64,000 nucleotides of DNA from Eubacteriales bacterium (GTDB taxonomy: Bacteria; Bacillota; Clostridia; Oscillospirales; SIG627): NCBI GenBank assembly GCA_045536965.1, contig JAZSON010000019.1:7393-71392 (forward strand), given 5' to 3'. The translations under genes and the position numbers were made by a program. Of this stretch, positions 3,728-18,312 are shown one piece after another. The first letter of the stretch is position 1. Every line of letters begins with the position of its first letter. The notes under the pieces are model-generated. The model was not told where the DNA came from and made no database searches. It saw only the letters and a list, made by a program, of their open reading frames with translations.

Positions 3728-6121
3728 TCATTCGGATTTTTCGGGATGGCGCAGTTTGGCGTAGGTTCCCATCATTTTCTTGGTGCCCACCTTTTCAAAG
3801 GTTACTTCATACAAGGTATCACCCGCCAGTTTCTTGACAGACTTGATCACGCCGAGGCCGAAGATATCATGCAGTACCTCTTCGCCCACCTGAAAACCAT
3901 GCGGGTTGTGTTTGCGCAAAAATTCTTCTTCACGCTCGGCATTTCTCTTTTTGGTGATTTCCTCAATCGCCTTGCTTGCAGCCGCTTGATAATCGGTGCC
4001 GCCCAAGCTGATACGCTTATACATACTCGCTGTGGTGCAGTCAATCAATTCCTGCGGCAATTCTTCCACAAAACGAGAAACACGATTGCTGGAAGTGCGT
4101 CCGTAAATCAGACGCTCACGGGTATAGGTCAAAATAAGCTGCCGTTTTGCACGGGTCACAGCAACATAGGCAAGCCGTCTTTCCTCTTCGATCTCTTCGT
4201 CGCTCAGTTGAGAAAGCACCGAGGGGAAAACATTTTCTTCCATTCCCGGCAAAAAGACCACGGGGAATTCAAGTCCTTTGGAGCTATGCATGGTCATCAA
4301 AACCACAGCACCTGCCTCGGGATCATAATTGTCAATATCGGCCACAAGCGCATTTTCTTCCAAATAGTCAGCCAAGGTTGCATCGGGATTGCTTTCCGAA
4401 AAGGCCACCGCGTTGGAAACCAACTCGTTGACATTGGCGATGCGGTCTTTTTCATCCTCGGTAGAACGAAGGAGCATATCCATGTAGCCGCTTCTTTCAA
4501 TCACGGCGGTAAAGAGGGCAGGCAACGCTTCGTTTTTCGCTACCTCCTGCAATTCTGTGATCAATTCATAAAAGGCAACCAGTTTGGATGCCGTTTTGGA
4601 AAGTTCCGGATAAGAGGCGGCGTCGCGAATAATATCGAAAGCGGAGGTGTTATTTGTTGCGGCAAGACGCATCACTGTTTCAATCGTCACCGCACCGATA
4701 TTTCTCTTGGGAAGATTGATAATTCTTTCCAACCGCACCATGTCACGCGGGTTATTTACGACCGCCAAATATGCATGGATGTCTTTAATTTCCCTTCTGT
4801 CGTTAAAGCGCGTTCCGCCGAGCAATCGATGGGGCAGAGCACTGCGGGTGAATACGTTTTCGAGTACATTGGACTGGGCGTTGGAACGGTAAAGGACGGC
4901 AAAATCGTTGTAGCTATATCCATCATCTCTTACCATACGCTGAATGGTATCGGCCAGATAACGGGCTTCCATTTCCTGATTTTCCAGTTCTCGCAAAACA
5001 ATTTTATCGCCGTGATCGCCTGCAGTCCAAAGTTTTTTTCCTTTACGCCCTCTGTTGTGGGCAATAAGTCCGTTGGCGGCGTTCAAAATGGTTGCGGTGG
5101 AACGATAGTTCTGCTCAAGAAGCACAGTCACGGCATCGGGATACTGCTTGTCAAAGCTCAAAATATTTTCAACCGTTGCGCCGCGGAATTTATAAATACT
5201 TTGATCGTCATCTCCCACGACCATAATGTTCTTATATCCGTCGCCCAAAAGGCGCAAGAGAACAAATTGCGCGTAGTTGGTATCCTGATACTCGTCAACC
5301 AAAATGTACTGAAATTGCTTGCGGCACATTTCTCTGACCTCATCGCATTCTTGCAAAATCCGAATGGTCAAAACGATGATATCGTCAAAATCAAGCGCAT
5401 TGGCCTCTGAAAGACGCTTTTGGTACAGACGATAGAGCTGCGCCATTTTCTGTTTTTTGAAATCTTCTCCCGCCTCAGCCTCCATGTCTTCTACGCTGCA
5501 AAGACGGTTTTTATATCCCGAAATGACATGCAACACACTGCGAGGCACGAAAACCTTTTGATCCAGCTCCAGATCGCTGATGCAGTCGGTGATCACTTTT
5601 TTGCTGTCTTCGGTGTCATAGATGGTGAATTGAGAATCAAAGCCGATACGCTGAATATAACGGTGAAGCAAACGAACGCAGACAGAATGGAAGGTGCCTG
5701 ACCAAATATCGGCGGCAGATTCTCCCAGCTCCGCTTTCAAGCGTTCTTTCATTTCGTTGGCCGCTTTTTTGGTAAAGGTGATCGACAAAATACCCGAAGG
5801 AGGACAGGGATCGACGGCAAATTGCTTGAGTACGGGAAGCAATCCTTCAGGCGGACAATCCTTTGCCGTCTTTGCAAATTGTTCCAGCGCTTCGATCTGC
5901 CCCGAAGAAAGGGCAGGAGCCGTCCCGCGCAAAGCATCTCCAAAGCGGATAATATGGGCGATACGCTTGACAAGCACCGTTGTTTTGCCGCTACCTGCAC
6001 CCGCAAGGACAAGCAACGGACCGCGCACCGTCGTAACCGCTTTGCGCTGCATATCGTTTAAGTTTTTATAATAGGCATCAAATAAAGCCTGCCTTACAGC
6101 ATCCAATCTCTCCAAAGCCAA
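3728..6121 (-). CDS. pcrA: ATP-dependent DNA helicase PcrA/UvrD
   Basis: LAGAGSGKT, VDEYQDTN, GDDDQSIY, EQNYRST, HSSKGLEF and EERRLAYVAVTRAK motifs, plus a C-terminal Tudor-like domain. TTG start with GGAGG RBS. Confidence 0.95.
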   Translation of the reverse strand: MALERLDAVRQALFDAYYKNLNDMQRKAVTTVRGPLLVLAGAGSGKTTVLVKRIAHIIRFGDALRGTAPALSSGQIEALEQFAKTAKDCPPEGLLPVLKQFAVDPCPPSGILSITFTKKAANEMKERLKAELGESAADIWSGTFHSVCVRLLHRYIQRIGFDSQFTIYDTEDSKKVITDCISDLELDQKVFVPRSVLHVISGYKNRLCSVEDMEAEAGEDFKKQKMAQLYRLYQKRLSEANALDFDDIIVLTIRILQECDEVREMCRKQFQYILVDEYQDTNYAQFVLLRLLGDGYKNIMVVGDDDQSIYKFRGATVENILSFDKQYPDAVTVLLEQNYRSTATILNAANGLIAHNRGRKGKKLWTAGDHGDKIVLRELENQEMEARYLADTIQRMVRDDGYSYNDFAVLYRSNAQSNVLENVFTRSALPHRLLGGTRFNDRREIKDIHAYLAVVNNPRDMVRLERIINLPKRNIGAVTIETVMRLAATNNTSAFDIIRDAASYPELSKTASKLVAFYELITELQEVAKNEALPALFTAVIERSGYMDMLLRSTEDEKDRIANVNELVSNAVAFSESNPDATLADYLEENALVADIDNYDPEAGAVVLMTMHSSKGLEFPVVFLPGMEENVFPSVLSQLSDEEIEEERRLAYVAVTRAKRQLILTYTRERLIYGRTSSNRVSRFVEELPQELIDCTTASMYKRISLGGTDYQAAASKAIEEITKKRNAEREEEFLRKHNPHGFQVGEEVLHDIFGLGVIKSVKKLAGDTLYEVTFEKVGTKKMMGTYAKLRHPEKSE

Positions 6122-7448: not shown

Positions 7449-7483
7449 AAAAATGTCTCCCGTAATTTGCGGGAGACATTTTT
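7449..7483 (+). terminator. Intrinsic terminator
   Basis: AAAAATGTCTCCCG-loop-CGGGAGACATTTTT. Confidence 0.85.
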
Positions 7484-7639: not shown

Positions 7640-7668
7640 TTGACGTAATTTAAATTGCATGATAGAAT
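7640..7668 (+). promoter_or_regulatory. Sigma-A promoter of the defence cluster, with a palindrome in the spacer
   Basis: TTGACG-17 nt-TAGAAT with TG extension. Spacer contains the perfect palindrome AATTTAAATT. Confidence 0.65.
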
Positions 7669-7707
7669 ATATTGATAAGAATAAATCAAGCGGGAGGGAG
7701 TGGAAAG

Positions 7708-9270
7708 ATGACAAAACGCGACGATTTTTGGACCGATGACAAGCTCTTGCCTGCCTCTCGCCGCCGCGATCTCTCGAGCACCGAAATCACATCAAATACC
7801 ACTTTCCCCGCTCTCCCAATCACACCGTCCCGCACCATGTATGAAAACGGTCTGTTCCACCCGCTTGAGATGGGTGAGGGGGAAAGCACCATGCTGAATC
7901 AAAACAGCCGTATTCTCATTTCTGCCACCGTAAGCTTTCCGGGATATGAAAAAATGGCTTTTCGCGAGTACCGCAAAAAAGCTTTGACCTCCCACAACAC
8001 TTCCCCAAAAGCGGCCGCTCCTTACCGCTCCTTTTACACCGTTATGCCGCGGTATGAATCCCTTGGCAAGGAGCAATTCCACTATTATCTCACTTGGCGC
8101 GACAAGGTCAGGCAGGGGAAATATATTCAGGTCGATTACGGGTATCTGTACCTGTATATTTATGAACTTCTCAATCTAATCGGTGATCTGCCTCCGCAGG
8201 ATGTCCTTTCCGCCCTTTTGTCCCTTTGGAAAGCCTATCGCAAGGATTTCCCCATGCTGGATAGGCAACTCGGGGATTGGTTGTTGGATCTGTGCATCCT
8301 TTGGAAGCTTCCTCTTCCCGCGGAAGATATTTTGGATATTTATTGTACCGGCGAACAAAAAACGCTGCCCCTCTCGGTCGTTTGCGGCGTGGTAGACGGA
8401 TTGCTTTGCGGAAAAATCCCCCTTACGCCCCCGCGCAAGGAACTGCTCTTAAAGCATTTTTGTTCCTATCATTTCCGTCAAAGCCGCTACTATCGAGAGA
8501 ACGGTCGCTTTGCCGAGCGCATGGAAGATCTTATAACAGAGTTGCTTCCCAAAATCATAGCAAGCGGTATTTTGTTGCCGTCTCATTCATCCTCCGCCAT
8601 GAAACTCACGCGCATCGCTTTTTGGGGCACCGTCATTTCGGCTGAAAAACGGCGCGCCATCAAGCTGGAATATTACACCAATTGGGGTGAAGAAACCCTC
8701 TCTTCAGCGCTGGGTGATTGTTTAAAGGTTTTGGATAACGCCCTGCGCACTTCATTCGGCATTCGTTCCCGCCTTTCGGGTATGCATTTGCCCGAAGATA
8801 TCACCAAAATGATTACAAACACGGTGGCAGATGAAGCACCCGTCAAAATCCCCGTCAAAGTCCCCATAAAGCAAAAGAAAGCCGCGGTAGATTTAAAAAT
8901 TGCGCGCAACATGGAAGAATCCGCTTGGGAGACAACCAAACTCTTGACCGCTTATTTGACCGAGGATACCCCCGAAGAAGAAATCATACCCACGATACAG
9001 GCGGAAAAAAAAGCCACTCCCCCCTCTGCCGACAACCGCTTTGCCGTCCTCGACAAAACAGAAGCCAAGGCGCTTTTGCTTTTGGCAAAAAAAGACATCG
9101 CGGCATTGCGACAGCTGGCATTGCAAAATGCACTGTTTCCCGAAGCCCTTGCAGACGCTATCAATGAAAAACTACTCGATTTTTACGGCGAACCCATCTG
9201 TGATGCGCAGGGGGTCTACGACGAATATGCCGATGAAATACTATCATCGGCACCCGATTATGAAAGGTAA
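7708..9270 (+). CDS. TerB_N/TerB_C domain protein, Shango SngA-like
   Basis: PRYESL..EQ..YYLTWR...VDYGYLYLYIYELLN (TerB_N) and LADAINEKLLDFYGEPI (TerB_C). GGAGGGAG RBS. Sits before a DUF2791 ATPase and an Lhr-like helicase. Confidence 0.8.
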   Translation: MTKRDDFWTDDKLLPASRRRDLSSTEITSNTTFPALPITPSRTMYENGLFHPLEMGEGESTMLNQNSRILISATVSFPGYEKMAFREYRKKALTSHNTSPKAAAPYRSFYTVMPRYESLGKEQFHYYLTWRDKVRQGKYIQVDYGYLYLYIYELLNLIGDLPPQDVLSALLSLWKAYRKDFPMLDRQLGDWLLDLCILWKLPLPAEDILDIYCTGEQKTLPLSVVCGVVDGLLCGKIPLTPPRKELLLKHFCSYHFRQSRYYRENGRFAERMEDLITELLPKIIASGILLPSHSSSAMKLTRIAFWGTVISAEKRRAIKLEYYTNWGEETLSSALGDCLKVLDNALRTSFGIRSRLSGMHLPEDITKMITNTVADEAPVKIPVKVPIKQKKAAVDLKIARNMEESAWETTKLLTAYLTEDTPEEEIIPTIQAEKKATPPSADNRFAVLDKTEAKALLLLAKKDIAALRQLALQNALFPEALADAINEKLLDFYGEPICDAQGVYDEYADEILSSAPDYER

Positions 9271-9276
9271 ACCATC

Positions 9277-10605
9277 ATGAGTGCAGAGATTGTCATTCCC
9301 AGAAGAACGCTCGGAACCCTCTTAAATGCCACCGCGGCGGGTGTTGTTCCCCGCACGGGACTTGAATACATGGCCATCGGACGGGAAAACGAAGTGCGTG
9401 CCATATTAAACGATTTTGAAAATGTTGCCGACGGTATGGGAGCATTCCGTTTTCTCATCGGTCGGTACGGAAGCGGCAAAAGTTTTCTCATCGGCCTAAT
9501 GCGCTCCAATGCCTTGGAACGCGATTTTGTTACCGCCGACGCCGATCTTTCTCCCGAACGCCGCTTTTCCGGCACCAAGGGACAAGGGGTAGCCACCTAC
9601 CGCGAATTGATGAAAAACCTCGCCACCAAATCCTCTCCCGACGGAGGCGCGCTTTCGGTGATCCTCTCACGCTGGTTTTCCAAGGTACAGGCAGAGGTGG
9701 TCACCACTTGCGGTCTGACCCCGAACGATGAGGCTTTTTCTCTCGAAGTGCAAAAACGCATCACCGAAACGGCAACCTCTCTCCAAAGCCTTGTCAACGG
9801 CTTTGATTTTTCCCATGTATTGACCGTTTATTACCGCGCCGTCAGAAACGGCGACGATCATCTCGCCTCGGATGCCATGCGTTGGTTGCGCGGAGAGTTT
9901 TCCACCCGTACCGAAGCAAGATCCGCTCTCGCCGTCAGCACCATCATCGACGACTCCAATTGGTACGATTACTTGAAATTGCAAGCGAGTTTTTTCCGCG
10001 CCATCGGCTATCGCGGACTCATTGTCTTTTTTGATGAGTGCGTAAATCTATACAAAATTCCCAATCGCATTTCCCGCGAAAACAATTATGAAAAGGTGCT
10101 TTCCATGTTCAATGATACACTGCAGGGCAAAGCGGAAGGACTGGGAATTTACATGGGCGGTACCCCGAAATTTTTGGAAGATGAGCGTCGCGGACTTTAC
10201 AGTTACGAAGCACTCAAGAGCCGCCTTTGCGGCGGTCATTTTGCGGGAGAATACACCGATTGGCTTTCCCCTGTAATTCGCTTGAGCCGTTTGGACGACA
10301 GCGCTCTCTTTGCCCTTTTGGTGCGAATGCAAGGATTGTTTTCCCGCTACCACAACATCCCCCCCGCCTTAAACGACCAAGCGCTTCTTCGCTTTTTGCA
10401 ATTTTGTCTGGATAAAATGGGAAGCGATGAATACCTGACTCCTCGGGAGGTTTTACGGGACTTCCTGCATGTACAAAGCATTTTGATGCAAAACCCCACC
10501 CTCTCGGTTGACACGCTTCTCGGAGACGGCGCCGTAACCATGACACGGAGCGGCAAGGAAGAAACCGAAGATGATCCTTTCGGCATGAATGACATTGTGG
10601 GGTAA
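9277..10605 (+). CDS. DUF2791 P-loop ATPase (BrxD-like), Shango SngB-like
   Basis: GVVPR.GL...IGR..E, Walker A GRYGSGKS, ADLSPERR, Walker B FFDECVN, GLYSYEALKSRL and TPREVLRDF. Confidence 0.9.
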   Translation: MSAEIVIPRRTLGTLLNATAAGVVPRTGLEYMAIGRENEVRAILNDFENVADGMGAFRFLIGRYGSGKSFLIGLMRSNALERDFVTADADLSPERRFSGTKGQGVATYRELMKNLATKSSPDGGALSVILSRWFSKVQAEVVTTCGLTPNDEAFSLEVQKRITETATSLQSLVNGFDFSHVLTVYYRAVRNGDDHLASDAMRWLRGEFSTRTEARSALAVSTIIDDSNWYDYLKLQASFFRAIGYRGLIVFFDECVNLYKIPNRISRENNYEKVLSMFNDTLQGKAEGLGIYMGGTPKFLEDERRGLYSYEALKSRLCGGHFAGEYTDWLSPVIRLSRLDDSALFALLVRMQGLFSRYHNIPPALNDQALLRFLQFCLDKMGSDEYLTPREVLRDFLHVQSILMQNPTLSVDTLLGDGAVTMTRSGKEETEDDPFGMNDIVG

Positions 10606-10608
10606 ACA

Positions 10609-12792
10609 ATGAAAAAACTTTCGCAAGACGAAATATTTAGACGTTTCTCCCCTTATATTCGGGACTTTATCTATAAAAACGGATGGGAAGAATTACGCGA
10701 GGTACAATGCCTTGCGGCAAGCATTCTGTTTGAAAGCGAGGATAACCTTTTAATCACCTCGCCCACCGCTTCCGGTAAAACCGAGGCGGCACTTTTCCCT
10801 CTTTTGACCATGCTCGACGGTCAATTTTCAGATTCGGTGGATATTTTATATATCGCTCCCCTCAAATCTCTGATCAACGATCAATTTTCCCGTCTTGATC
10901 CTCTCCTTGAGGGAAATATGCCTGTTTTTCATTGGCACGGAGATGTACCAAGTGGGGCGAAGGAAAAATTTATTCGTAGGCCTCGCGGTATTTTGCAAAT
11001 CACCCCCGAATCACTGGAAAGCATGCTTCTCCACCGTTCTCAAGATATTCCACGCATTTTCGCCCACCTTTCTTATGTTATCATTGATGAGATCCATGCC
11101 TTCGCGGGACAGGATCGCGGTGAACAGCTTCGATGTATTTTGGAACGCATTGCACGTTTGATCGGCCACTGTCCCCGTCGCATCGGCCTGTCGGCCTCGG
11201 TGGGAGATCCACGCGCCATGGCCGATTGGCTGGGAGCGGGCACCCCGTATGAAAACGCTGTGGCCGAAGTGCAAAACGCTTCTGTCAGATGGCGTCTTGC
11301 CATGCAGCATTTCTTTACCGATCAACCCGATTCGGAAGACGGTCTTACCTTGGATGCCGCCTATGCTTTTGTGTATGCCGCCACCGAGCAAAACAAATGC
11401 CTCGTTTTCTCCAATTCCCGCGAAGAAACCGAACAGGTCACCGCTTCTCTGCGACAAATTTCCCGCAAAAAGGGGGAGCGCGACCGCTTTATGATCCACC
11501 ACGGCAATCTTTCTGCGGCCCTCCGAGAAGAAGCAGAGCACTCTTTACGCGAGACCACACATCCCATGACCGTCTGCGCCACCGTTACATTGGAGCTGGG
11601 TATAGACATTGGGCAACTTAACCGCATCATCAATATGGGTTCTCCCAACACGGTCGTCAATTTTCTCCAACGCTTGGGTCGCTCGGGCAGACGAAATGTC
11701 CCCCCCGAAATGATGATGGTTTTCCGCGAAGAGAAGGCTCTGCCCAACGCGCCTGTGTATCAGGCTGTTCCTTGGGAGCTGATTCGCGGCATCGCCATTG
11801 TACAGCTTTATCTTGAAAGCCGCTTTTTAGAAGAGAGCCGTCCGAAAAGCATGCCGATGAGCCTGCTTTTCCATCAAACACTCGCAACCCTTGCATCGGC
11901 AGGCGAGTTATCTCCCGCCGCGTTGGCCGATCGCATCTTGTCCCTCTCCCCCTTTGCACAGGTCGATCCGCAAGATTTTAAAGCTTTGCTGATTCACCTT
12001 TTGGAAACGGGTATGGTGGAAAAAGGAGAGGAAGGCGGTATCATTACAGGAGTTTCTGCCGAGCGCCTTCTCGGAGATTATCGTTTTTATGCAGTATTTA
12101 AGGACAGCGAAGATTATACCGTTCGCGAAAAATCCGAAGAAATCGGCACCATCACCACACCACCTCCCATCGGTGATCGCTTTGCACTCGCGGGCAGGGT
12201 GTGGGAGGTAGAGGAAATTGATTTGCCGCGAAAACTCATTTATGCAAAAAAAGTAGATGGCAAAATGGATGTTGCCTGGCCGGGAGACCGCGGAGAAATC
12301 CACACCCGTGTTCTTGAACGGATGAAACGCGTTTTAACCGAAGATACCATTTACCCTTATCTCAAGCCATCGGCTGCCGAGAGACTTGCGCAAGCCCGTC
12401 TTTTAGCCAAACAAACGGGATTTGCAACCCAACCGCTGATTTGTCTGGGCGGAAACCGATACTGCCTTTTCCCGTGGCTGGGTACCCGCGCCATACGCAC
12501 CTTAAAACGGCTTTTGGTCTATTTTTCACGCGAACTTGACCTGACCGACGTGCAGTATGACGGTTGTTATTACCTTTCTTTCCGTACGGGATGTACGCAG
12601 TTTATGACACGGCTGCTTGCTTGTCTTGCGGATGATCGTTTGCCCGACAGGGAAAAATTGCTCGCCGCATCCGAATATCCCGCGCAGGATAAATATGACA
12701 GCTTCATTCCGCCGATGCTTTTGAAAAAAGCGTATGCAAGGGATCGGCTGGACTACACCGATATACGCCGTCGTTTGACGGAATGGAAATAA
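10609..12792 (+). CDS. Lhr-like DEAD/DEAH helicase, Shango SngC-like
   Basis: PTASGKTEA, PLKSLINDQ, TPESLE, DEIH, HHGNLS, TLELGIDIG and QRLGRSGRR motifs are all intact. Confidence 0.9.
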   Translation: MKKLSQDEIFRRFSPYIRDFIYKNGWEELREVQCLAASILFESEDNLLITSPTASGKTEAALFPLLTMLDGQFSDSVDILYIAPLKSLINDQFSRLDPLLEGNMPVFHWHGDVPSGAKEKFIRRPRGILQITPESLESMLLHRSQDIPRIFAHLSYVIIDEIHAFAGQDRGEQLRCILERIARLIGHCPRRIGLSASVGDPRAMADWLGAGTPYENAVAEVQNASVRWRLAMQHFFTDQPDSEDGLTLDAAYAFVYAATEQNKCLVFSNSREETEQVTASLRQISRKKGERDRFMIHHGNLSAALREEAEHSLRETTHPMTVCATVTLELGIDIGQLNRIINMGSPNTVVNFLQRLGRSGRRNVPPEMMMVFREEKALPNAPVYQAVPWELIRGIAIVQLYLESRFLEESRPKSMPMSLLFHQTLATLASAGELSPAALADRILSLSPFAQVDPQDFKALLIHLLETGMVEKGEEGGIITGVSAERLLGDYRFYAVFKDSEDYTVREKSEEIGTITTPPPIGDRFALAGRVWEVEEIDLPRKLIYAKKVDGKMDVAWPGDRGEIHTRVLERMKRVLTEDTIYPYLKPSAAERLAQARLLAKQTGFATQPLICLGGNRYCLFPWLGTRAIRTLKRLLVYFSRELDLTDVQYDGCYYLSFRTGCTQFMTRLLACLADDRLPDREKLLAASEYPAQDKYDSFIPPMLLKKAYARDRLDYTDIRRRLTEWK

Positions 12793-12810
12793 AAATCAGG
12801 AGATCACGCT

Positions 12811-15800
12811 ATGAACGAAATGAAATTACAGCTTGAACTTTCAGCCATCTACGGTTATGCCCTCTCCTACAATCGCTTTCCCGCCATTGAAAGAATTCTG
12901 TTGGATACACCCTATGAAGTCACAGGTGATCTTGTACTGACACTGACGGCCAAGCCTGCCTTTTTTCAGTCGAAGATCATTCCGATCCACACACTGACAA
13001 AAGGCGGTCATTTTGCCATCTGCGCCCCCCAATTGACCTATCACGCCGATTATCTTGCCTATTTGGAAGAAAATGTTCCTGCCGTTGTGATCGCGAGTTT
13101 AACCCAAAATGGTAAGGAGATCGCCTCTGCCAAGCATCCGATCACCCTGCTCCCCGCCAACGTTTGGAGCGGCAGTGAGATTATGCCCGAACTTTTGGCC
13201 ACGCTGATTTCTCCTGCACAAGAGGAAATCCAAAAAACCGTCGATCAAGTCTGCGCAGAGCTTTCTCCCCGCGATATTTTCCGCCACCGCGATTATAGTG
13301 ATCACAGCCCAAAAGCCATTTTAACCATGATGGAAACACTGTATCACACACTGCGGAGTTTGCGCTTGTCCTACGCCATGCACACACCTGATGCCAATAA
13401 AAAGGGCGTTTCCTTATGCTATCCCGAAGCGGTGTTACAATATCGCAAAGGTAACAGTTTGGAGCTTGCTCTCCTTTTCGCTTCACTGCTCGAAGCATTG
13501 GGCATGCATCCCGTTCTCGCGCTTTTCAAGCAACAGACCATCGTTGGTTGTCATTTGCGTAAGACTGCCTTTCCCTCGTCCGCTTTCCATACATATCACA
13601 CACTCTTTACCCGCGACGGTAAAAACGGAAAAGAAGGCGCTGTCTGTTTTCTGGATATGGCTACCCTTGCTTACGGCACATCATTTTCCTTTGAGGAAGC
13701 CATCAAAAGCACCTATTCCGTCATGCGGGAAAATGCCGCCGATTTTGTGGTTGCCATTGACATATATCGCGCCCGCCACAACGGTATTTCTTCTCTCCCC
13801 GATCGTGTTCTTTCGGGAGACAATCGGATTTTTGCCAATATTGACGCAGCCTTGGACAAAATGCCCGGATACGATGACCTTGCTGCCCGTTCCATCGGAG
13901 ATGTCTATGACCGCGCTTCGGCCCTTTTCCGCAACCGTATCATCACACAAGATGATGATATTCTTCTTTCGACCCATGAAAACGGAAACGGTCTGCAATT
14001 GATCGATATAGATCCGACCGTCATCGTAAGTAAATTGATGCAAGCGGGCGGGGTGGATATCGCCCCCTCTCCCTTCCGCTTTTCGGGTCAAGATCGGGAT
14101 GTTGCCGATCTCTGTTTGATTGGCGAACATCTTGCATCTTCTATCCCCCCCGAAGAGGATGACCCCGTTCTCACCTCATTTTTAGAGAAAAAAAGTCTGC
14201 AAAAATATTTAAGCCGCTTATCCGACATGGCCGACCGCCGCGCCGACGAATGCGGTTATACGGGACTGTGTGTCGGTATGGGACTGATCCGCTACACCGA
14301 GACCCACTCCGATGATATTTCCTATGCGCCCGCTATCCTCTATCCCGTTCGGTTGCTCACAAATACCGAGGACAAAGGATACCGTTTGGTGTCTACCGGC
14401 GAAGCGCCTCTTTATCATGAGGCCCTTTTTGAAAAACTCCACCGCATTTTCGGTATTCGTCCCGATGGATTGCCAAGTTTAGCGGGACGTGGTTTTGCCG
14501 CACTCATCCCCGGTGTTTTACGCCAAATCAAGTCAGCCTATTCCCTCTGTTCGGGCGTGACCCTTTGCAGCGGAAGCTGTCTGGGTATATTCGCCTGCGA
14601 CAATGCCCACCTGCTTTCTCTGCTCTCCCCTCACACATTGCGTTCAAATCCCCTTTCTTCCGCTCTCGTTTCGCAAAAATATCCCATGGATGAAGAACCT
14701 ATTTTCCGCACCCCTACCTCCGCCCTACTTCCCATGGACGATAAGCAATACGCTGCTTTCCACACCGCTCTTGCCCACACGATCTCTCTCACCGAGGGAC
14801 AAAGCGGAAGCGGGAGAAGCCGTGTGGCCGAAAATTTGATGTTCCATCTTTTAGAAAACGGAAAGCGTGTGCTGTATGTCGCTTCTTCTCAAAGCAGTGT
14901 GCAAAATATGTTTAAGCGTTTGAAGGCAAACGGTCTGGAGGAAGCCGCAGTTGCATACGGAGCATCCGCTCCCATTTTGGCCCCTGCCTTCCCCACCGCC
15001 TCCCTTACGTTGCCGCCGCCCGAAAGCAGTCTGCCCGTCTTAATGGCACAGATTGCCCATTGTAAAAATGAGATTGATTCTTACTATGCAGCACTGAAAA
15101 AAGTGGGACTGTTTGGTTTTTCGTTCACACGCGCCCTCCAACAGTTTGAACGTTACCGTGATGCCGATGCCGTCCCTTTCACCCCGCTTGAACTGACAGG
15201 CCTGACAAAAGATGAAATCGCGTTGCGGTTTGACACAGCAGCAACCCTTTTTGCCGCAGGACACGCTTGCGGAGAACCGCACAACCACATTTTACGCGGG
15301 GTTACCGTCCACGATTTATCTCCTGTCGAAATGGAAGAAGCAACCCTTTTAACCGCAGAGTTGCCCGCGCTTTATCAGCAATTTATAAAACAGATCACCG
15401 CGCTTGCTTCGGCCGTAAAAGTCGATGTTCCGCAAACAAGCGACGCCATCGCTACCCTTTGGGAATCAGCTCGCATATTTGCAGCCGCTCCCATGGGTAT
15501 GGTCAAAAAACTTTTGGTCAGCGATCTTTTCGAAGAATCCTCTCCCACCGAAATATTAAAATCCGCCGCTTCAGCCATGGACATCCGAGAGCATTTAGAT
15601 TCCCTTTTTGCCGACGGTGCTTTTTCTCTGCCGGTGGAAGAAATGATCAACGATTTGCAAAATGCGCAAAACCTCTCTTTCTTCAAAAAGAAGACCATTC
15701 GAACAGCAACTTTGCATCGATTGAATGAGTATACCAAAAACGGATACACCTGCAAGCTGTCCGAACTTGAGGATATTCTGATACAGTTTAGCTTGTACCG

Positions 15801-17838
15801 CACTCGTTTAAATGCGGCAGGCGATATTTTCGCAAAGCTTTCCTCCCTCTTTGGATTTGCCGATTGGGCATTGGATACACTGCCTGCGGGAACCATCCGT
15901 CAAATGGCCGCCGCCTCGGAGGTGTGCGACAGTCTCCGCAACCGATTTGCCGCCAAGGATTTAAACGACTTGGCCGATTCTCTCCCCGAAAGCACGCAGA
16001 CGGTTGCAGAAATCCTCCGAGAAGCAGAATCTGCCTACTCGTTATGGAGCCACTCTTTCCGTTCTTGGGCTTCGCTTTTGAAGATCGCCTTACCAAGCGG
16101 TCTTACCGTGGAGGGCGCCCCCTTCTCGCTCCTTGCCGAAACGGTTGACACCATAAAGCGCGGCATTGATCGTCTGCCTGCTTGGTGCCATTATTTGGCG
16201 GTTAAACAGACCGCTCTCCAAAACGGACTTGAAAAAGTAGTTGCCATGTACGAAAGCAAGCCATTGACTTCCGAAAACATGGAAGCATCGTTCGTCAAAG
16301 GTTTCTTTGATGCAGCCTGCCGTTCCATTCTGCTGACAGAAGATGTTTTGCGTACATTCAACCCCGCCGTTTTTGCCGCCAAGATTGCGCATCTGGAAAA
16401 ATTGGAGGAAACCTTCCGCAAGCAGGCGCTTGAAACCTTCTTAACTTCCCACACCAATCTGTGCAATGCCTATTACACCGATCACCTTCGCAACGCTCCG
16501 CAGTATGCCCGTTGCCTTGAAAACAATGAATGCTTAAATGTCGGAAGACTAGATAGTCTTTTGCCCGAAGCGGCCGATGTACGCTTTCCCTGCGTGCTGT
16601 CTTGCACCGCGCCCATTCTGCGAAAAATGCGTGAACGCCCTGGATTTGCCGCGTTTGATTGCGTGATCTTCGACGAAGCCGAAAACATTCCGTTTGACCA
16701 TGCGTTGGCCATCATTGGTTGTGCTCGTCAAATCGCTGTTTTCGCTTCTCCCGCCCTCGGAAGCCGCACATCCCACCGTTTCATCGCAGAAAGCACACCT
16801 CTTTGTTCTACAAACCGCGAAGACATGGATAGCCTTTATGAGGTAATTGGCAACAACTGCCCCAACAAAACGGTTTTAACGCAAGGGTATGCCGCCCCCG
16901 GTCTTGCTGATATTTTCGCTTCGTTGACAACCAGAAAACCCATTCATCCCACCATGCCAAACGCTTCTCCCGTCCGTTTTGATGACGCCGTTGAGGTAAC
17001 AGTGATTGACGAAAATATTACCGATTCTTTCAATCCTGAGGATGCGGAAGCCATCGGTATCATTCAAACACTTACAGCCTTGTCCGAACAAACACCCGTT
17101 CCCTCTGTCGGAATCATAACCGGTAACCATGAACAAGCAAAACGAATCGAACGTTATTTATCGGCATTTCTCTCCCGTGACGCTTCTCTTGCAAAGAGAT
17201 TGGCAGAAAGTCAGGAGGCTTTGTATATCACCCCCTTGTCGGATGCCACCGACAGACCACGGGATTACATTCTCTTTTCTCCCGCCATCACCCTCTCAAA
17301 ACAAGATGCCTCCATCCCCACCGCAGCTACCTTCGCCATTCCCGATTGCCGCGCTCGTTTGGATGCCGCTGTTGGTTCGGCCAAGAAAAAAATGCATGTT
17401 GTCTGCGCTTTTTCTCCCGCCGTTGTATCAAAAAAATCGACGCTTGACGATTCTTATAATGCACTTTGCGACTTTTTCCTTGCCCTGAACACAAAGACAA
17501 TATATACCCCCCTTCCCTCGACCGTCACGAGCCGTTCGGAGGAAACGGTTTGCCAAACCATTTGCACCCGTCTGCACGCTGAAGGATACCTGACCGTTTA
17601 TCCCATGAGCGAGAGCATTGACATCGCCGTCTCGATGCCCGATGCACCCGATACCTATCTTCTCGGCATCACCCTCGATCAAACCGCTCTTCACGCCGCA
17701 AAAGATACTTCGGCGCGAGAATGCATCCTCCCTCGGCATCAAAAAGCCCACGGCTGGCAAATACACCGCATATTGGCGCCCGCATGGTACGCCGACAGAG
17801 AGGCCTGCCTAAAAGAAATTTTCTCCAAATTGCCTTGA
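12811..17838 (+). CDS. Large DUF4011 / SF1 helicase / Vsr-like REase protein (Hhe-like) with degenerate catalytic motifs
   Basis: AGGAG RBS. Domain order: N-terminal transglutaminase-like region, DUF4011-like GLCVGMGLIRY...YAPAILYPV, EGQSGSGRS/GKRVLYVA, FDCVIFDEA, then C-terminal IDIAV...YLLGI.LD...GWQIHRI..W. Confidence 0.8.
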   Translation: MNEMKLQLELSAIYGYALSYNRFPAIERILLDTPYEVTGDLVLTLTAKPAFFQSKIIPIHTLTKGGHFAICAPQLTYHADYLAYLEENVPAVVIASLTQNGKEIASAKHPITLLPANVWSGSEIMPELLATLISPAQEEIQKTVDQVCAELSPRDIFRHRDYSDHSPKAILTMMETLYHTLRSLRLSYAMHTPDANKKGVSLCYPEAVLQYRKGNSLELALLFASLLEALGMHPVLALFKQQTIVGCHLRKTAFPSSAFHTYHTLFTRDGKNGKEGAVCFLDMATLAYGTSFSFEEAIKSTYSVMRENAADFVVAIDIYRARHNGISSLPDRVLSGDNRIFANIDAALDKMPGYDDLAARSIGDVYDRASALFRNRIITQDDDILLSTHENGNGLQLIDIDPTVIVSKLMQAGGVDIAPSPFRFSGQDRDVADLCLIGEHLASSIPPEEDDPVLTSFLEKKSLQKYLSRLSDMADRRADECGYTGLCVGMGLIRYTETHSDDISYAPAILYPVRLLTNTEDKGYRLVSTGEAPLYHEALFEKLHRIFGIRPDGLPSLAGRGFAALIPGVLRQIKSAYSLCSGVTLCSGSCLGIFACDNAHLLSLLSPHTLRSNPLSSALVSQKYPMDEEPIFRTPTSALLPMDDKQYAAFHTALAHTISLTEGQSGSGRSRVAENLMFHLLENGKRVLYVASSQSSVQNMFKRLKANGLEEAAVAYGASAPILAPAFPTASLTLPPPESSLPVLMAQIAHCKNEIDSYYAALKKVGLFGFSFTRALQQFERYRDADAVPFTPLELTGLTKDEIALRFDTAATLFAAGHACGEPHNHILRGVTVHDLSPVEMEEATLLTAELPALYQQFIKQITALASAVKVDVPQTSDAIATLWESARIFAAAPMGMVKKLLVSDLFEESSPTEILKSAASAMDIREHLDSLFADGAFSLPVEEMINDLQNAQNLSFFKKKTIRTATLHRLNEYTKNGYTCKLSELEDILIQFSLYRTRLNAAGDIFAKLSSLFGFADWALDTLPAGTIRQMAAASEVCDSLRNRFAAKDLNDLADSLPESTQTVAEILREAESAYSLWSHSFRSWASLLKIALPSGLTVEGAPFSLLAETVDTIKRGIDRLPAWCHYLAVKQTALQNGLEKVVAMYESKPLTSENMEASFVKGFFDAACRSILLTEDVLRTFNPAVFAAKIAHLEKLEETFRKQALETFLTSHTNLCNAYYTDHLRNAPQYARCLENNECLNVGRLDSLLPEAADVRFPCVLSCTAPILRKMRERPGFAAFDCVIFDEAENIPFDHALAIIGCARQIAVFASPALGSRTSHRFIAESTPLCSTNREDMDSLYEVIGNNCPNKTVLTQGYAAPGLADIFASLTTRKPIHPTMPNASPVRFDDAVEVTVIDENITDSFNPEDAEAIGIIQTLTALSEQTPVPSVGIITGNHEQAKRIERYLSAFLSRDASLAKRLAESQEALYITPLSDATDRPRDYILFSPAITLSKQDASIPTAATFAIPDCRARLDAAVGSAKKKMHVVCAFSPAVVSKKSTLDDSYNALCDFFLALNTKTIYTPLPSTVTSRSEETVCQTICTRLHAEGYLTVYPMSESIDIAVSMPDAPDTYLLGITLDQTALHAAKDTSARECILPRHQKAHGWQIHRILAPAWYADREACLKEIFSKLP

Positions 17839-17845
17839 TAACCAA

Positions 17846-17874
17846 GCATATTCACTCCCCTCCTCGCATACAAT
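17846..17874 (+). promoter_or_regulatory. Putative sporulation sigma-E promoter
   Basis: GCATATT-14 nt-CATACAAT, matching the B. subtilis sigma-E consensus and spacing. Confidence 0.6.
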
Positions 17875-17895
17875 GCGGTGTGAGGAGGGGGAAAA

Positions 17896-18312
17896 ATGAC
17901 AAACACGACACAAAAATCCAATCCCAAAAACACATTAAAAGCCATTATTTTCAGCGCACTCTTTGCTTTAATTTCAGCTTTTGTTCTATTGGCTCTTGGT
18001 GTTTGGATTTTGGAAAAAATCCCGAAAAGCGAACGTTTTGAACCAATCTTCGTTCTCTCTGTTCAACTTCTTTGCGGTTTTATCGGCGGCTGGATCTCTT
18101 CCCTTTCCAAACAAAATTGTTTTTTGCGCGCCTCGTCTACCGCCGCTTTATTTACGTTTACCATGCTTTTACTGTCTTTTGTCTTTTTATCACCCGCCCC
18201 CCTTCCCGCTTTTCTTTCGGCTCTGCCGATCATACCTGCGGGCATAGCGGGAGGATGTCTCAATGCCTTTAGAAAAACCAAGAAAACTCATCGGAAAACA
18301 AAACGAAAATAG
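17896..18312 (+). CDS. Four-TM membrane protein, TIGR04086/YrzE-like
   Basis: Four hydrophobic helices, GFIGG and AGIAGG motifs, basic C-terminal tail. Strong RBS. Confidence 0.65.
   Translation: MTNTTQKSNPKNTLKAIIFSALFALISAFVLLALGVWILEKIPKSERFEPIFVLSVQLLCGFIGGWISSLSKQNCFLRASSTAALFTFTMLLLSFVFLSPAPLPAFLSALPIIPAGIAGGCLNAFRKTKKTHRKTKRK

Follow-up and report, generated by a model that had tools for sequence, protein, structure and literature searches.

Intact Shango genes followed by a catalytically degenerate ProA-like gene, possibly a domesticated pseudoenzyme, in a family of gut Clostridia

The 64,000-nt stretch of Eubacteriales DNA analysed here (the window) carries four contiguous forward-strand genes separated by gaps of only 6, 3 and 18 nt. 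These are the three genes of the anti-phage system Shango (sngA, sngB and sngC) and, directly 3′ of them, a large gene (gene 4) related to the Prometheus defence protein ProA. On balance we lean towards the reading that an intact Shango is likely co-transcribed here with a domesticated pseudoenzyme form of ProA, which is likely a non-enzymatic scaffold with a main job independent of Shango. The arrangement itself is real, old and specific to the lineage; it does not demonstrate a four-component system.

Genes 1 to 3 are, by sequence, an intact Shango system in the order A-B-C. The sequence-only reading of the window had recognized this system in a TerB-like protein, a DUF2791 ATPase and an Lhr helicase, and the PADLOC and Pfam matches agree (Table 1). 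The Walker A and B motifs of SngB (at residues 62 and 251) and motifs I, II, III and VI of SngC (residues 53, 160, 195 and 354) are intact; SngA gave no match to the central TerB domain (PF05099) at E values up to 0.1. The locus resembles described Shango loci in its genes, their order, the near full-length PADLOC matches and the intact ATPase and helicase motifs. It differs from them in its dead ProA-like fourth gene, and in being single copy, vertically inherited and placed among housekeeping genes instead of in a defence island. Shango is named in Millman et al. (10.1101/2022.05.11.491447), its three genes give 10- to 100-fold protection in P. aeruginosa PAO1 (10.1101/2022.11.11.516204; Johnson et al., PMC10250203), a DUF4011 gene is a core flank of the P. 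aeruginosa hotspot that often holds Shango (PMC10250203), and TerB systems are treated in 10.1101/2025.09.30.679545. SngB and SngC are homologous to the BrxD/BrxHI dyad of BREX type 2; the locus differs from that system in that no BREX core gene was found among the 15 neighbours scanned, and the BrxD model scored 170 bits against a cut-off of 350.

The fourth gene had been called Hhe-like. Its DUF4011-helicase-Vsr domain composition was confirmed, but the Hhe identity was not, and we rejected that label: gene 4 scores 477 bits on the ProA model (NF058533; PADLOC candidate PDC-S37) against 113 bits on Hhe (NF042953), each below its cut-off (Table 1). The best stretch on the Hhe model falls within the last 270 residues, and the intact relatives of gene 4 reach 2017-2045 bits on ProA, far above their Hhe scores. 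Gene 4 shares with ProA, in order, an immunoglobulin (Ig)-like/transglutaminase-like head, DUF4011, an Upf1/Dna2-like superfamily 1B (SF1B) helicase with a long insertion, and an MTES_1575 domain. It differs in that Ser216 stands in place of the catalytic Cys, that helicase motifs III-VI are lost, and that it has no DUF3320 tail, which Pfam detects in intact relatives but not here; it is also shorter (1675 versus about 1920 residues). The predicted structures nevertheless suggest that the fold is kept despite the loss of motifs. AlphaFold2 gave a predicted local distance difference test (pLDDT) score of 86 for residues 1-630 and of 84 for residues 600-1675 (39- and 40-row alignments). In Foldseek the second model matched the Upf1-like SF1B helicases senataxin, Aquarius and Dna2 (best E 7e-8), and the N-terminal half matched transglutaminase 2 and Ig-fold proteins, both only weakly (best E 1.0e-3). 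Gene 4 is the sole copy in the window genome, which holds no intact ProA.

We surveyed 36 relatives from the window organism's own family of gut Clostridia (f1) for gene 4, SngB and SngC; these genomes are incomplete assemblies, and kin among them are not independent. Full-length copies from 24 relatives and the window form a set of 25, two further copies (G010 and G019) being excluded because contig ends cut them, and 14 motif-intact relatives served as reference. The roles of the SF1 helicase motifs are established. All 14 intact relatives keep the transglutaminase Cys, the Walker B Glu, the motif III Gln, the motif IV Arg, the motif V Gln and the motif VI Arg. The Cys, the motif V Gln and the motif VI Arg are found in none of the 25 f1 copies, and the Walker B Glu (in the window's own copy), the motif III Gln and the motif IV Arg in one each. 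What persists is the Walker A Lys or Arg, in 16/16 copies outside genus g5 and 0/9 within it, and the Walker B Asp, in 15 of the 16 non-g5 copies. The window copy itself keeps the Walker B Asp-Glu (1287-1291), carries Arg in place of the Walker A Lys, and matches none of five helicase patterns; since its Walker B is kept, the case for calling it dead is made by motifs III-VI and the Cys. The claim that the catalytic sites of gene 4 are degenerate thus stands, and we infer from these losses that its catalytic activity is gone.

The same division appears among the best 150 of 24,293 library matches, each scored for the five patterns: 126 kept four or five, 2 kept three and 22 kept none. In the main motor blocks, identity per 50 residues is 69-80% in the intact set versus 17-30% in the dead set; in the helical insertion it is 15-32% in both, values that may both lie near the alignment floor. 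The nuclease end has another history. MTES_1575/Vsr-like folds carry the nuclease pattern E-x-DG-xx-YH, of which gene 4 lacks the Glu, but so do 113 of the 126 motif-intact relatives (the pattern is present in 13), so this loss is older than the decay of gene 4. The g5 copies (L054, L035, L049 and others) are shortened to about 1390 residues by deletion of about 280, including the whole DUF4011 region; all of them lack the Walker A Lys and are detached from Shango.

Gene 4 is nonetheless maintained. All 25 full-length f1 copies are unbroken open reading frames of 1390-1713 codons, at a mean identity of 25%, and in 9/9 pairs of dead copies the nonsynonymous rate (dN, 0.19-0.57) is far below the synonymous rate (dS, 1.6 to saturated). 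This holds for three pairs from genomes without Shango (G006/G012, G023/G029 and G023/G035: dN 0.45-0.52, dS above 3 or saturated) and for three Shango-adjacent pairs (dN 0.32-0.57, dS 2.5 or saturated). By this measure gene 4 is under purifying selection, also after its separation from Shango. Its sequence evolves fast, with about 20-25% identity between genera against 55-62% for SngB and 50-58% for SngC, and across genera adjacent copies are no more alike (19.6%) than Shango-less ones (20.9%).

Gene 4 occurs in 26 of the 36 f1 relatives, and SngB together with SngC in 21. It lies directly 3′ of sngC in 10 of the 26 (G001, G003, G004, G007, G008, G009, G010, G014, G016 and G019), hence, with the window, in 11 of 27 genomes and five genera. 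Shango stands elsewhere in the genome in nine (eight g5 genomes, in one of which it is 4.3 kb away and convergent, and G013). In the remaining seven (G002, G006, G012, G023, G029, G035 and G036; 80-96% complete) neither SngB nor SngC was found, also on a profile recheck. The unlinked and Shango-less copies match the adjacent ones in both degeneracy and conservation. The sequence-only reading had argued that a dead gene 4 was unlikely to work without Shango; with seven Shango-less and nine unlinked f1 copies degenerate yet under selection, that argument fails. It had also named, as an observation that would refute it, that close homologues of gene 4 lie mostly away from Shango loci, and 16 of the 26 relatives have theirs away from one. 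Weak profile matches in G017, G020, G024 and G027 (E about 1e-4 over 50-115 residues, in reading frames of 460-688 residues) were rejected as gene 4 and are uncounted here. Ten relatives without gene 4 also lack the marker of its neighbourhood (apgM in 0/8, control 5/5; the g5 neighbour in 0/2, control 1/1), so the absence of gene 4 may be an assembly gap or the loss of a block.

Where the two stand together, they have done so for long. The SngB proteins of f1 form a single clade (support 0.993) in which every genus is monophyletic. In the gene 4 tree, from which seven fragmentary, duplicate or other-subfamily rows were dropped, all genera but g7 are monophyletic, and g4 and g5 are sisters in both trees. 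Adjacent copies fall on both sides of the f1 SngB root, so that adjacency is likely ancestral. From these trees, the neighbourhood of sngC and gene 4 is old and vertically inherited, and the earlier view that gene 4 is no chance neighbour in a defence island was borne out. The shared flanks show how the pair came apart. In G023 and G035 the gene found 18 nt upstream of gene 4 is pfkB, which in G003 and G009 stands before sngA; likewise, a VTC/DUF4956 pair lies ahead of gene 4 in G002 but ahead of sngA in G004. Shango is thus cleanly missing in G023, G035 and G002, and in g5 it is inverted beside the same flank genes. We infer at least five separations of Shango from gene 4. Since pfkB and gene 4 are likewise 18 nt apart in genomes lacking Shango, close spacing has no diagnostic value.

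Dead copies are not confined to f1. In family f8 they occur in 16 of 61 genomes; among the 15 full-length ones examined (L120 and L231-L244; one split copy was left out), 14 stand directly upstream of an mreB-like gene, 12 keep the Walker A Lys and none lies beside Shango. SngB was not found in any of the 11 genomes of the f8 genera g79 and g415; with the same profile it was found in three of the five other genomes, on contigs other than that of gene 4. The f1 and f8 dead copies group with a support of 0.999, though on very long branches. In genus g12 of family f5, related reading frames are present in 4/4 genomes, and the only one aligned (G040; L122:6015-10520) is degenerate, has kept DUF3320 and has lost DUF4011.

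Outside these families there is no general link between the two. In an order sample of 236 non-f1 genomes, SngB was found in 40, a match to the gene 4 profile (which missed some very diverged dead copies, as in G242) in 23, and both in two. Among 400 genomes of the phylum, 23 carry a ProA-like gene and 20 an SngB-like one; the single genome with both has them 1.6 Mb apart. From 80 fetched Shango loci we set aside 9 of f1, 19 without sngC in view and 4 that were too short, and none of the 48 usable loci (non-f1, with at least 1 kb of sequence 3′ of sngC) has a DUF4011 gene 3′ of sngC. A metagenome scan with gene 4 returned seven loci; the six examined held no close relative, only helicases of other lineages with largely intact motifs and no Shango gene. 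A counterpart is found in G225, a genome of another family (L112:4561-15517, G225:C26), where a complete sngABC is followed, 39 nt after sngC, by an intact ProA gene (1936 residues, 2045 bits), an all-active version of the four-gene order. Since the G225 SngB is far from the f1 clade and its congener G150 has a ProA gene without Shango nearby, this pairing is independent of that in f1. A Desulfosporosinus hippei locus (L140:6304-16413) was rejected as a second pair: there Shango, with an SngA of 1225 residues, is followed by an intact superfamily 1 helicase gene of 919 residues of the AAA_11/AAA_12-DUF2726 type, which lacks DUF4011.

How could such a gene have arisen? In the f1 ancestor a ProA gene would have stood directly behind sngABC, as the intact one does today in G225. 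Loss of the transglutaminase Cys, of helicase motifs III-VI and of the DUF3320 tail would have followed, and the degenerate gene would have become fixed among housekeeping genes on the chromosome and been inherited vertically from then on. Shango would later have been separated from it at least five times, by deletion, inversion or scattering, gene 4 staying whole. RecC and AddB have a helicase fold without motor motifs and a nuclease-like C-terminus. Gene 4 resembles them, by analogy, in both respects; it differs in coming from another helicase family, and any partner of it is putative. Like these dead helicases, it may act without hydrolysis, unwinding or cutting. Most copies outside g5 retain the Walker A Lys/Arg and the Walker B Asp, with which gene 4 may bind a nucleotide; its Ig-like head and helical arm may serve for contacts with nucleic acid or with protein partners. 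To our knowledge no mechanism has been established for Shango, and for ProA only an active form, defending as a single protein, is known. SngB may load the SngC motor onto DNA or activate it there, as proposed for BrxD and BrxHI in BREX type 2 (PMC12839542).

Several observations weigh against the favoured reading. Five genera have kept the adjacency even though their gene 4 copies now share only about 20% identity, and the block downstream of gene 4 is less constant in some of these (G003, G007). Gene 4 is present in 19 of the 21 f1 genomes with SngB and SngC, and there is no firm case of an f1 Shango without it, the exceptions G017 and G024 (90% and 88% complete) also lacking its neighbour gene and being possible assembly gaps; a one-way dependence of f1 Shango on gene 4 is possible. 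The G225 pair could reflect defence clustering or a recurring functional pull, and the Walker B Asp-Glu and basic Walker A residue of the window copy make a residual ATPase possible. One alternative is a lineage-specific Shango accessory: as a RecC-like dead helicase, gene 4 would recognize DNA or protein of the phage and bring in or license the SngB-SngC motor, and another function would maintain it where Shango is gone. We take this alternative seriously but consider it rather unlikely. The 11 of 27 genomes with gene 4 directly after sngC, found on both sides of the SngB tree, the 19 of 21 f1 Shango genomes that carry it, the joining of g4 and g5 in both trees and the independent pair in G225 all fit it. 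So does the PAO1 Shango assay, which is compatible with help in trans, a core DUF4011 gene being present in every P. aeruginosa isolate (PMC10250203). However, the accessory role needs a second function to explain selection on the 7 Shango-less f1 and 15 f8 copies, no region of gene 4 is more conserved in adjacent copies, the 18-nt spacing recurs with pfkB, and the 48 other Shango loci lack a gene of this type. The prediction that degenerate copies stand beside Shango more often than intact ones does hold numerically (11/27 in f1 versus 1/14), but it reflects one inherited event and not repeated co-occurrence. A predicted complex of SngC 5-550 with gene 4 1225-1675, one of many possible domain pairs, scored 0.03 (mark 0.32) and speaks neither for nor against binding. 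A bolder form of the idea, in which two defence systems have fused, is unlikely in our judgement: the motor-less ProA would be a RecC-like scanning subunit handing foreign nucleic acid or protein to an SngB-loaded SngC, f1 Shango would depend on gene 4, and the dead protein would also serve cell functions.

If gene 4 is instead a stand-alone, non-catalytic defence that binds phage DNA or phage inhibitors of ProA-type enzymes, or serves as a decoy for them, its ProA descent and its fast evolution, as often seen in conflict proteins, would follow. We find this improbable: all domains of ProA are reported to be essential (second-hand, in PMC13700489), and gene 4 does not resemble mobile defence genes, being present once, at a fixed locus among housekeeping genes, and inherited vertically. 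A decoy, moreover, would have no intact ProA to shield in the window genome. That gene 4 is a decaying passenger of a defence island with no present function would account for the lost motifs and the g5 deletion, but the 25 open frames, the excess of dS over dN in every pair tested and the predicted fold (pLDDT 84-86) make it very improbable, selection having largely refuted it. A domesticated pseudoenzyme beside Shango remains the reading we favour, by the modest preference given at the outset.

A dead ProA of 1,400-1,700 residues that is near-core in at least two families of gut Clostridia would represent an immune enzyme turned non-enzymatic. The natural series of adjacent, unlinked and Shango-less copies, with the intact ProA of G225, should be useful both for the role of the pseudoenzyme and for the question of a Shango sensor subunit. 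It also carries a warning, that operon spacing and dead motifs do not make a system subunit. Should the fusion of two systems be true, it would, with the mreB-linked copies of f8, mean that an immune helicase has been domesticated more than once to serve as a pseudoenzyme scaffold. We found no literature on a pairing of Shango with DUF4011, most subscription papers, including the original ProA paper, being outside the reach of the search, nor any on domesticated inactive anti-phage helicases in Clostridia, although loci of this kind could appear in the system tables that supplement the Shango papers.

The four-gene layout, with a terminator on its left and a promoter-like site upstream, is as the sequence-only reading had described it, and co-transcription of sngABC and gene 4 appears likely from these signals. 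A pattern scan found no promoter-like or terminator-like site in the three intergenic gaps. The promoter at 7640-7668 is a good single match, short of proof: between 6000 and 20000 there are 19 promoter-like sites (14.2 ± 3.6 in shuffles) and 25 terminator-like ones (17.8 ± 4.4), both near chance. An alternative upstream TTG start at 7672 is only 3 nt past the -10 box, and the ATG at 7708 has a GGGAGG site in front of it. The transcription unit probably ends at the hairpin 3′ of gene 4, which had not been mentioned before; a hairpin with z at or below -3 (mononucleotide shuffles, 60 for the window hairpin) lies within 70 nt past the gene 4 stop in 18 of the 25 f1 copies. The window hairpin masks the ribosome site of the next gene and overlaps a sequence, GCATATT-14-CATACAAT at 17846-17874, which we take to resemble a sigma-E promoter. 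A transcript starting there would lose the 5′ arm of the hairpin and leave the TIGR04086 ribosome site accessible, whereas a transcript running on from gene 4 would keep the TIGR04086 gene silent.

Table 1. Features of the four-gene locus, in window coordinates
Feature	Position	Strand	Evidence and remarks
Putative terminator hairpin, 16 pairs, A-run/T-run arms	7449..7483	+	-23.1 kcal/mol; closes upstream oxidoreductase gene; left border
Putative sigma-A-type promoter-like site TTGACG-17-TAGAAT, extended -10 (TG)	7640..7668	+	10/12 consensus matches
sngA, TerB_N + TerB_C protein, 520 aa	7708..9270	+	PADLOC SngA E 1.9e-43, profile 82-524/528; Pfam PF13208, PF15615
sngB, DUF2791/BrxD-like (BrxC_BrxD) AAA+ ATPase, 442 aa	9277..10605	+	PADLOC SngB E 1.2e-165
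sngC, Lhr/BrxHI-like superfamily 2 helicase, DEAD/Helicase_C/WH_Lhr, 727 aa	10609..12792	+	PADLOC SngC E 2.7e-226
Gene 4, degenerate ProA/Prometheus-like protein, 1675 aa	12811..17838	+	NCBIfam ProA 477 bits (cut-off 1500), Hhe 113 bits (cut-off 2000)
Gene 4 residues 1-325, Ig-like beta sandwich + transglutaminase-like fold	12811..13785	+	AlphaFold2 pLDDT 86
Gene 4 residues 386-543, DUF4011	13966..14439	+	Pfam E 1.6e-12; deleted in genus g5 copies, partly in g4
Gene 4 residues ~740-1225, long helical insertion in first helicase domain	15028..16485	+	Helical in model
Gene 4 residues 1585-1674, MTES_1575/Vsr-like nuclease fold, likely inactive	17563..17832	+	Pfam E 1.7e-11
Hairpin, 14 pairs, 3′ of gene 4	17856..17891	+	-26.7 kcal/mol, z -6.6; right border
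TIGR04086/DUF3792 membrane protein gene	17896..18312	+	First gene of downstream block

The block downstream (the TIGR04086 gene, a deacetylase and an apgM-type mutase) travels with gene 4. Of the 15 neighbours scanned with PADLOC, the only ones to match were a UvrD/PcrA helicase (GajB-type models) and, weakly, one 253-residue gene (mad2); the remainder are metabolic or envelope genes by Pfam and NCBIfam. The GC content of the operon (0.504, versus 0.468 for the genome) places it among the top 8 of 182 10-kb windows; we rejected a recent horizontal island despite this high value, as the genus-congruent trees argue for a long residence.

Given this vertical inheritance and housekeeping context, the f1 Shango may have a non-defence role. 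A loose order of the Shango genes in these gut Clostridia hints at such a role. In the sister clade of the f1 SngB, sngA-sngB often stands without sngC in view or with genes interposed (L114-L117, L139, L141, L146, L149, L157, L161, L162, L164, L167, L168, L178 and others), and in G013 sngAB, sngC and gene 4 lie on three contigs. In Shango-less genomes of genus g6 (L036, L044), two tandem genes with a MutS_V domain lie head-to-head with gene 4. Finally, the UvrD/PcrA helicase of the window (3728-6121, reverse strand) matches Pfam UvrD in two stretches, which suggests an insertion of about 35 residues near its N-terminus.

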